Assembly (NCBI GenBank): GCA_964016885.1
Contig: OZ024754.1
Location: 41,416,001-41,480,000, forward strand
Reading direction: 5' to 3'
DNA: 64,000 bases
DNA from: Eledone cirrhosa
Lineage: Eukaryota
The position numbers and the translations under genes are program-made. Below the pieces are notes generated by a model. It ran no database searches, was not told where the DNA came from, and saw nothing but the letters and a program-made list of their open reading frames with translations. Below, one piece after another: positions 20,571-62,473 of this stretch (position 1 is its first letter; each line of letters opens with the position of its first letter).

Positions 20571-20625
<55 letters not shown>

Positions 20626-20749
20626 GTAGGAGGTGAGTTTTATTGTAGTACAATAAAGCAATGCAGATATCGGATAAGAAGCACTCTACAGTTTGTGGGA
20701 CTGGAGTATGCATAATATAAGATCAAAAGATGGTTAAAGGAGTTCCATA

Positions 20750-20820
20750 TATTTTATTATGCGCATTTCAAAAACAAACATCATCAAACAATAATATTTG
20801 TGTTTTCATCAGATAAAACA
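20750..20820 (-). ncRNA. Type I hammerhead ribozyme (mirror copy)
   Basis: Reverse complement of 20924-20994 with one stem II difference. Confidence 0.8.
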
Positions 20821-20923
20821 GGAGAACATGATATGAAGGCTAAAAAACACTTGTTGATAGTGATATGTTGATTTAAAACTGCACTATCAACAAGTGTTTT
20901 TTAGCCTTCATATCATGTTTACC

Positions 20924-20994
20924 TGTTTTATCTGATGAAAACGCAAATATTATTGTTTGATGATGTTTGTTTTTGAAATGCGCATAATAAAATA
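20924..20994 (+). ncRNA. Type I hammerhead ribozyme
   Basis: Stem I tgttttat/ataaaata; CTGATGA 20932; long stem II gcaaatattatt/gatgatgtttgt; GAAA 20975; T-gcgc-A palindromic stem III; AUA with predicted cut after 20986. Confidence 0.82.
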
Positions 20995-21024
20995 TATGGA
21001 ACTCCTTTAACCATCTTTTGATCT

Positions 21025-21074
<50 letters not shown>

Positions 21075-21075
<1 letters not shown>

Positions 21076-21921
21076 AACAGCAATGTTACATGGCAGTGAG
21101 ACCTGGGCATTGTGTGCAGGGGATCTGCGCAGACTGGAGAGGAACGAAGCATAAATGAACTAAGTGAGAAATTAGGAATAAGAGGGATCAGATGCTGTTT
21201 ACTCGAGAGAAGACTACGTTGGTATGGTCACGTGATGCGCATGAAAGACGACAGCTGTATAAAAAAGTGCAGGGTGATTAAAATAGATGGAAGCCACGGA
21301 GTAGGCAGACCCAGAAAAACCTGGGACGATCTGATAGATTCTGACCTCACACACTTACACCTCTCCAAGACAATGTCACTGGACCGAGATCTTTGGCGCT
21401 ACGCAGTAATACAGAAGACCCGCCTTGCCCAAGTACAAAGCGAAACCTACAGTCAGTAGGCACCTCCTAACCAAAATACACCCCCACCCACTACCCTTAT
21501 CACCACCCCTATCTACACCTAAAGTTATGTCGGTGCCACAACATCCAGTCCTAAATAAATGAGGTCGTGTAGGTGTCACGACAAAAAAAACACACAGTCC
21601 ACGCTGTAATGTGGCCGTGTAGGTAACACGGTAAAAACCTCCCAGTCCACACTGTAAACGTGGTTGGTGTTAGGAAGGGCATCCAGCCGTAGAAAACCTG
21701 CCAGACAGTCCACGCTGTAATGTGGCCGTGTAGGTAACACGGTAAAAACCTCCCAGTCCACACTGTAAACGTGGTTGGTGTTAGGAAGGGCATCCAGCCG
21801 TAGAAAACCCGCCAGACAGTCCTATACGAGCAAGACAACCAATCTTGCCTCACGTGGGACAATTCCTGTCTAACCCATGCTAGCGTGGAAGATAAACGTT
21901 AAACAACGATGATGATGATGA
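21075..21921 (+). mobile_element. 5'-truncated RTE LINE, second family, with long 3' region
   Basis: AMLHGSETWAL...ERRLRWYGHVMRMKDDSCIKKC...GRPRKTW (internal deletion), 3' region with an internal duplication, (GAT)n tail. Confidence 0.88.
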
Positions 21922-48337: not shown

Positions 48338-48373
48338 TATATATATATATATTTATATATATACAATGATATA

Positions 48374-48690
48374 AATAAATGGAAACTATATTTATAAAAC
48401 CATATTTATTCTATTATATATATTTCAAGGGTACCAAAACTTTGGTACGCTCTCATCAGATAAAATACAAAGTTTGTTTTATAAATATTGACATATCCAG
48501 GAAGGAGATCTTAATGGTTCAAGTTTTTCCTGGATAGTTTGGTACCCTTGAAATATATATAATAGAATAAATATAGTTTTATAAATATAGTTTCCATTTA
48601 TTAATATTATTGATATTATACTCCAGAAAAAAATCTGTTGAGTGCTTCGAATCAGTTATAAATATTGAACACGCATTTCATTTATTTTGA
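48374..48690. mobile_element. Asymmetric fold-back PLE-like element, family A
   Basis: Arms 48374-48438 and 48538-48602 homologous to 7245-7555; tail with GAGTGCT at 48640. Confidence 0.83.
48407..48467 (-). ncRNA. Type I hammerhead ribozyme
   Basis: Minus strand: tattttat CTGATGA gagc gtaccaaa gt tttggtac cctt GAAA t atat ATA atagaata. Confidence 0.8.
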
Positions 48691-48803
48691 CACTTTCAAA
48701 AACATACATTTCATATAGATTTTATTTTGACTTTTCAGAAAACATACATTCCATCTTAATGAACACTGCTACTTACTTACACCCCCGCAATCTTTGGTCA
48801 CAC

Positions 48804-61535: not shown

Positions 61536-61696
61536 CTATATATATCTCTCTCTCTCTATATATATATATAGGTAATGGAATAATTATATTGTTATTTATA
61601 TCTAATTCAATGTATGTATATATATATATATAAATGTATGTATACATATATATAAAAATGTATGTATATATATATATATATATATATAAATGTATT

Positions 61697-61817
61697 ATAT
61701 AAGATCAAAAGATGGTTAAATGAGTTCCATGTATTTTATTTCCCACAAACTGTAGAGTGCTTCTTATCCGATATCTGCATTGCTTTATTGTACTACAATA
61801 AAACTCACCTCCTACAT
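61697..61817. mobile_element. Family D PLE-like insert: inverted short arm plus tail
   Basis: 61697-61740 matches 20715-20758; 61741-61817 is the reverse complement of 20624-20700; (TA)n flanks. Confidence 0.87.
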
Positions 61818-61888
61818 ATATATAAATGTATGTATATATATATATATATAAATGTATGTATATATATATATATATATAAATGTATATG

Positions 61889-61944
<56 letters not shown>

Positions 61945-62024
61945 TATAAATGTATATGTATATATATATATATATAAATGTATATGTATATATATATATA
62001 AATAAATGTATATATATATAAGTA

Positions 62025-62140: not shown

Positions 62141-62473
62141 ATAATACAGGAGAAGGAGGACATCTATGGACCATTGATGAGGAGTTTACAAATCCAGTAT
62201 CCAAGATACACCTTTAGCTTCATACCCATCATTATTGGAGCTACGGGTTATATACCAACCCGCTTGGACCAAAGTATGCCTGAACTTGGATTTGCGGACA
62301 TAGAACGCAGCTCCCTAATTCATAGTCTACAAATGGCTGCGATAGCTGGCACCTTCAAAATTTGCAAAACATTCTTGCGATTCAAGGGATGACAATTTCT
62401 TTTCTTTTACAACCTTGCCACCAGGAAGGTGGCCAGTCAAAAAAAATATACTCGAAATTAGGAGAAAGAGATA
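62141..62473 (+). mobile_element. 3' fragment of an RLE-type (R4/Dong-like) non-LTR retrotransposon in (TACA)n
   Basis: EKEDIYGPL...FIPIIIGATGYIP..L...ELGF...LQMAAIAGTFKICKTFL* (stop at 62392) fits the C-terminus of restriction-like-endonuclease retrotransposons; short 3'UTR; TACA repeats on both sides. Confidence 0.75.

Follow-up and report, generated by a model that had tools for sequence, protein, structure and literature searches.

Arm ends of an abundant Penelope-like element in Eledone cirrhosa concentrate on a single base at -124 and are flat at the predicted hammerhead cut

How the inverted repeats of Penelope-like elements form, which RNA strand serves as template and what use is made of the hammerhead ribozyme (HHR) are called open in the available portions of four accounts (PMC3846280, PMC8557442, PMC4209133, PMC11167929). 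Among described systems, the C-terminal EN+ elements of the Hydra clade, as set out in the available text of Craig et al. (2021; PMC8557442), resemble the family described here in having a single ORF with a reverse transcriptase (RT) followed by a GIY-YIG endonuclease, a DKT motif, a CxCX5C linker, CxxC and CxH motifs without CCHH, a hammerhead near the 3' end, (TA)n targets, partial tandems and inverted 5'-truncated copies. The Poseidon element PAc of Anolis carolinensis, in the available part of Frangieh et al. (2024; PMC11167929), is alike in its two internal RT start sites, which define the one-sided tail, in its AT-rich targets on both strands and in a hammerhead that is dispensable for insertion, with no reads ending at its cut; that part contains no description of cDNA ends, of a cap-type G or of cDNA joining. 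Penelopes of Adineta vaga, in the portion available of Arkhipova et al. (2013; PMC3846280), share the head-to-head inverted pLTRs, the one-sided tail, palindromes at the inverted junction and an Inr-like site in the pLTR, and their authors favoured antisense self-priming while leaving a sense template open. In addition, a promoter and start site have been placed within the pLTR of Penelope (available text of PMC2377424), and in L1 an untemplated G at full-length 5' ends, similar to one reported below, has been read as cap copying (available text of PMC9341517). A search of largely open-access literature returned no report of a cap-type G or of cDNA-cDNA annealing for Penelope-like elements, and the available part of an octopus repeat paper (PMC13282606) holds nothing on this subject.

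The window analysed here, a 64,000-nt stretch of the Eledone cirrhosa assembly (OZ024754.1, 41,416,001-41,480,000), contains copies of a family so abundant that one of its 28-mers occurs 9,519 times without mismatch in the 3.0-Gb genome. Family positions are numbered from +1, the first base 3' of the predicted hammerhead cut GCGC-AUA^AUAAAAUA at 20986/20987 of the window. The EN+ Penelope-like character of the family is seen in a single ORF with a telomerase-like RT and a GIY-YIG endonuclease, and in partial tandems with a pLTR, inverted 5'-truncated copies and a one-sided tail. The 800-aa ORF (L046:1992-4391) carries FDI and DDG RT motifs and IYE..YFG, and its protein-atlas neighbours, scoring 0.96-0.98, include HTH_animal, GIY-YIG and RVT_1 members; a direct Pfam scan of two ORFs gave 0 matches. 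Hydra-clade features are present as DKT at residue 123, CNCRIKNKC (the CxCX5C linker) at 659, CNLC at 759 and CLH at 787, and, as in that clade, the ORF lacks CCHH (one C stands between IY and YFG) and GxKF/Y. Nearly all 3' flanks examined are (TA)n. The position of the RWK motif reads RWT at residue 37, with RW kept and the third residue different; the unit of ~3.7 kb and the tail of ~88 nt also depart from the units generally <3 kb and tails of 30-40 nt of the clade, as do the thousands of short cassettes found here (available text of PMC8557442). By its motifs the family is a Penelope-like element that matches the Hydra clade. In tandem units, one of which lies in L035, the tail runs on into the leader, followed by the ATG at +213; 254 filtered leader matches were recovered. 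An extra stop at +138, suggested by two copies (L031 and L046), was rejected, since nearly all of the 100 leader matches listed (of 254) continue into the tail. The 3' UTR of one copy (L031:5065-5494) holds two tandem repeats of ~210 nt, 81% alike and without hammerhead cores, whose number varies between subfamilies.

The reference copy at 20.6-21.0 kb consists of two arms arranged head to head. Its long arm, on the minus strand at 20624..20862, covers family -105..+134 and so includes both the tail and an intact hammerhead core. Its short arm, on the plus strand at 20863..21032, covers -124..+46, starting at the genome-wide stop site described below; the G that precedes it, at 20862, doubles as the final base of the long arm. 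Motif scanning and folding located a minimal type I hammerhead motif on the plus strand at 20926..20994, with a CUGANGA/GAAA/NUH core, helices I and II and a short palindromic helix III (UGCGCA); the core CUGAUGA...GAAA-UGCGC-AUA is present on both arms, and helix I is closed by UUUUAU/AUAAAA. The fold has a z-score of -1.0, and Rfam scans of the window and the pLTR gave no match to a hammerhead or other ribozyme, returning microsatellite noise only. Self-cleavage at the NUH site is a prediction from the motif, and its genomic proxy, arm ends at the cut, is without a peak. A variant of this hammerhead with a shortened stem II is common, and some insertions carry it in each of their two arms.

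The insertion at 61697..61817 lies between (TA)n-like target repeats at 61610..61696 on the left and 61818..62020 on the right. A sequence-only reading of this DNA had placed the inner end of its short inverted arm within 1 nt of the predicted cut and its outer end close to that of the short arm of the reference copy (+46, at 21032), and blastn against the reference copy and a natural full-length copy bears out both placements: the arm, on the minus strand at 61697..61740, aligns to family -1..+43 and merges into the AT repeat by ~+46 to +50. It is also joined, as described, directly and with no gap to a sense tail, the tail-only long arm at 61741..61817 on the plus strand, which covers +58..+134, reaches the second of the family's two 3' ends and is 98.8% identical to the tail of the reference copy. 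The longest match of the short arm takes in -1 (61740), beyond the scissile bond, so that an exact start at the cut requires an untemplated T at 61740. Since the two arms do not overlap (-1..+43 versus +58..+134), neither is a fold-back of the other unless the centre was deleted later; such a later central deletion may have affected single copies, this one included. L1 twin priming likewise joins an inverted 5' segment to a non-overlapping sense 3' segment, the arrangement seen at 61697..61817; unlike L1, the family has fixed, internal priming sites and no poly(A), and its arms usually overlap fully instead of abutting. The tail also contains, a short distance before +134, an almost perfect inverted repeat of 19 nt (~+101..+119; 61784-61802 and 20639-20657), a candidate protein-binding or priming hairpin.

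The interpretation that had been drawn from the inner end, namely that reverse transcription ran off the 5' end of a self-cleaved RNA and left a footprint of ribozyme activity in vivo, is not supported. When inner arm endpoints were plotted relative to the NUH site, no sharp peak appeared there and no enrichment was found near the cut; the ends are flat at the cut and peak at -124. In a sample of 107 arms, 0 arms start between -20 and +20, versus 20 at -124/-125. Of the 100 places listed for the 28-mer 93 were retrieved, and 20 regions were chosen partly by pair distance. Among the matches listed for insertions of the same class, with a tail-only arm, 15 of 33 inverted partners end at -121..-125 and only one ends at the cut, which is 61697..61817 itself (148 filtered matches, 100 listed and 91 analysed, 9 having been dropped by eye as same-strand indels). 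With 12 same-class partner ends over -120..+30 among the matches listed, the chance of one end hitting a 3-nt window is 22%, and the coincidence at 61740 is not beyond chance. The sequence-only reading is further weakened by the match at -1 across the scissile bond and by the short arm of the reference copy, which, as it had overlooked, begins at -124 (20863) and passes through an intact, uncut ribozyme. Because the footprint claim fails, the copy at 61697..61817 is itself ordinary, a small insertion with two arms from a Penelope-like retroelement that is present in very many copies.

Finer counts around the cut agree in showing a flat distribution. A filter on ends at -3..+10 gave 271 matches, of which 98 of the 100 listed were analysed, 2 having been judged on inspection to be indels on the same strand; a parallel count collapsed two further rows as duplicates and used 96. 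True ends numbered 78 of the 98; among these matches listed, the counts at -3, -2, -1 and +1 to +10 are 11, 5, 0, 10, 3, 8, 10, 6, 11, 0, 4, 2 and 8, with 13/78 true ends at the cut +-1 (p=0.93). The estimated end density among the matches listed is 16.6 per nt at the cut versus 19.2 at -61..-50 and 27.4 at +19..+25, becoming 32, 33 and 39 per nt after correction for the core match rate. The scripted analysis used 74 of 100 rows for the -61..-50 window and 30 of 100 for +19..+25, with true ends in 70/74 and 25/30, respectively. A further control window at -21..-14 (739 matches), where 16/30 rows put the density at 49 per nt, above the cut window, was left out because it used a different filter and was contaminated by the variant with a deletion in stem II.

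The reading that we prefer, and hold to be probable, is that transcription of a sense RNA, capped and uncleaved, begins at -124 and that the arm end of 61697..61817 meets the cut by chance, which is likely given the missing peak at the cut and the sharp stop at -124. We consider it unlikely that a minor class of insertions, including 61697..61817, derives from hammerhead-cleaved RNA with a 5'-OH at +1, with trimming that blurs the peak over about -3..+6; such a class would be small (<1%, a few tens of insertions), and 61697..61817 could belong to it. The junction at 61740 fits +1 plus one untemplated T, the CUGANGA core is well kept (74/85 arms), and among 27 ORF-bearing units a single one has its start at +1, but there is no excess at the cut +-1 among the matches listed, the core-normalised density there equals that of the controls, and a monomeric minimal hammerhead is reported inactive in vitro in the available text of PMC4209133. 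Junctions whose two arms end <=6 nt apart are more frequent at the cut (11/53) than in the controls (4/50 and 0/18; p=0.09 versus 4/50 and p=0.024 versus the pooled 4/68), yet this symmetric excess is gone at <=12 nt (13/53 versus 13/50). Similarly, in the downstream control, partners ending at -2..+4 amount to 4/18 by script, and those at -1..+5 to ~17/100 by eye among the matches listed, but those at +2..+5 use TTTA microhomology with +20..+23, and any excess would come to a few tens of junctions among thousands.

The stop at -124 that underlies the preferred reading is one base wide genome-wide, falling on the A of TTTTC|ATATG (20863 in the window; L035:5707). At least 4,355 arms stop there and 4,649 read through in genome-wide pattern counts, so that at least 48% of the arms reaching -124 stop on that base, a rate >100x the per-base rate at the cut. 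In the same kind of count, the base just before the arm, a C in the template, is G for 2,154 of the -124 arms and A/T for 2,201. G therefore makes up 49.5% of the non-C bases before -124 ends, versus 18.5% (20/108) at other ends (Fisher p=6e-11), although these control ends, away from the putative TSS, may have been trimmed and so deprived of bases added to them, and some of the G's before arms, including that at 20862, are shared with the partner arm as GATA microhomology. Double -124 junctions with an insert carry at least one cap-type base in 8/8 cases, and on 10/16 arms overall. Perfect ATAT-overlap palindromes account for 43 of 100 rows listed (counted by eye), a class that alone could be a microhomology hotspot since CATATG (-125..-120) is itself palindromic. 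The context TTC-A(+1)TA, with +1 here marking the putative start, is a pyrimidine/purine initiator-type start. In four public sequencing runs (non-RNA or of unlisted type), DNA depth steps up at L035:5700-5715, spanning -124, and a few strand-switch joints at -124 occur in the public DNA runs.

A strong RT stop or processing site at -124, caused by RNA structure, a bound protein or an uncapped cut end, with the G arising from a terminal-transferase preference for C, appears to us quite improbable. The upstream pLTRs of ORF-bearing units (L251-L280) start at -124 in 0/27 cases, 18 extending further upstream and 9 stopping short, one of them at +1; about half of the arms read through -124; and no clear TATA or DPE was seen near -124 by eye. 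However, the stop is only one base wide, the G excess is restricted to -124, Rfam found no ribozyme family near it, read-through arms are expected from tandem transcripts, and the initiator-type context together with the published Penelope pLTR promoter (available text of PMC2377424) fits a transcription start. If -124 is a start site, the absence of ORF-bearing copies beginning there would go beyond a simple model with one promoter: -124 transcripts may come mainly from short cassettes, and ORF-bearing copies would depend on tandem insertion or on read-through templates of greater length. The short cassettes, promoter-bearing in this view, may themselves be SINE-like templates. A capped start at -124 makes a precise and directly testable prediction, capped 5' ends at one base and few 5'-OH ends at +1. 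The interest of the case lies in this family-wide cap-type signal, and the endpoint count can be repeated in any genome rich in Penelope-like elements.

The second part of the earlier inference, that each insertion involves two priming events, is supported, and most of it is already in print. The 3' ends of the 107 sampled arms fall into two groups, 51 at +134 and 56 at +43..+52, and 48/52 head-to-head pairs combine one arm ending near +46 with one at +134 (p=1e-10); the non-overlapping arms of 61697..61817 are likewise in keeping with two priming events. A pile-up just beyond +46, as in classical twin priming, was not seen (148 filtered matches over ~10 nt). The two RT start sites of the anole element, tied to its one-sided tail, lie inside the ORF (available part of PMC11167929), whereas those of this family would fall within the leader, upstream of the ATG by 79 and 167 nt.

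From these patterns we infer a start site and cap at -124, a sense template and an annealing step, and we think it somewhat likely that the junctions record an integration intermediate of a Penelope-like element, in which cDNAs primed at +46 and +134 on capped, uncleaved sense RNA run off at -124 and anneal through ATAT. The GIY-YIG/RT protein would open the (TA)n target, and each target DNA end would prime one cDNA, one at +46 and the other at +134, both being fixed sites inside the RNA. Both cDNAs would be extended in the direction of the RNA 5' end, copying the unreacted ribozyme on the way. On transcripts starting at -124 the cDNA would run off and in many cases gain one more C by copying the cap (read as G before ATATG), and other cDNAs would go beyond -124 on read-through RNA. 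The cDNA 3' ends would then be joined by self-complementary ATAT annealing, giving perfect palindromes, by other microhomology or by a few added bases. Shorter arms at scattered positions, that of 61697-61817 included, would result where synthesis stops early, where ends are trimmed or where the centre of the palindrome is lost afterwards. Least favoured of the alternatives, and in our view very improbable, is that one cDNA self-primes or folds back on an antisense template, as proposed in the available portion of PMC3846280, with endonuclease resolution giving +46 and with short copies arising when the centre is deleted later. In its favour, palindromes at the junctions abound, the sequence at +40..+46 is similar to the (TA)n target, and 45/61 partner ends lie <=30 nt apart, as central deletion would give. 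Against it, intramolecular priming cannot produce a zero-loop ATAT-centred palindrome, -124 arms are also found joined to a tail, to an insert or to an unrelated position, a single junction can bear cap-type bases on each of its arms (CATG inserts), the end of one long arm does not depend on that of the other, and two RT start sites on sense RNA have been shown in vitro (available part of PMC11167929).

In comparison with the Adineta vaga account, the present counts favour two cDNAs from a sense, capped RNA. Two cDNAs joined on such an RNA, if confirmed, would account for head-to-head pLTRs, for the palindromes at their junctions and for a tail on one side only, with no need of an antisense template, and the hammerhead would be bypassed in nearly all productive insertions. 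The model agrees with hammerhead-independent insertion in vitro (available part of PMC11167929) and with the weak activity of minimal hammerheads (available text of PMC4209133).

Other elements were noticed in the window. At 48340-48780, a second head-to-head cassette lies between (TA)n repeats, with a weak likeness to the tail of this Penelope-like family and, on the minus strand near 48465, a hammerhead-like start, UUUUAUCUGAUGAG; it is probably another Penelope-like family. An open frame at 21142-21460, whose translation contains RLRWYGHVMRM and GRPRKTW, is presumably the 3' end of an RTE-type LINE. Finally, the translation of an open frame at 62144-62394 ends in ...AIAGTFKICKTFLRFKG*, which we take to resemble the C-terminus of a restriction-like-endonuclease LINE.
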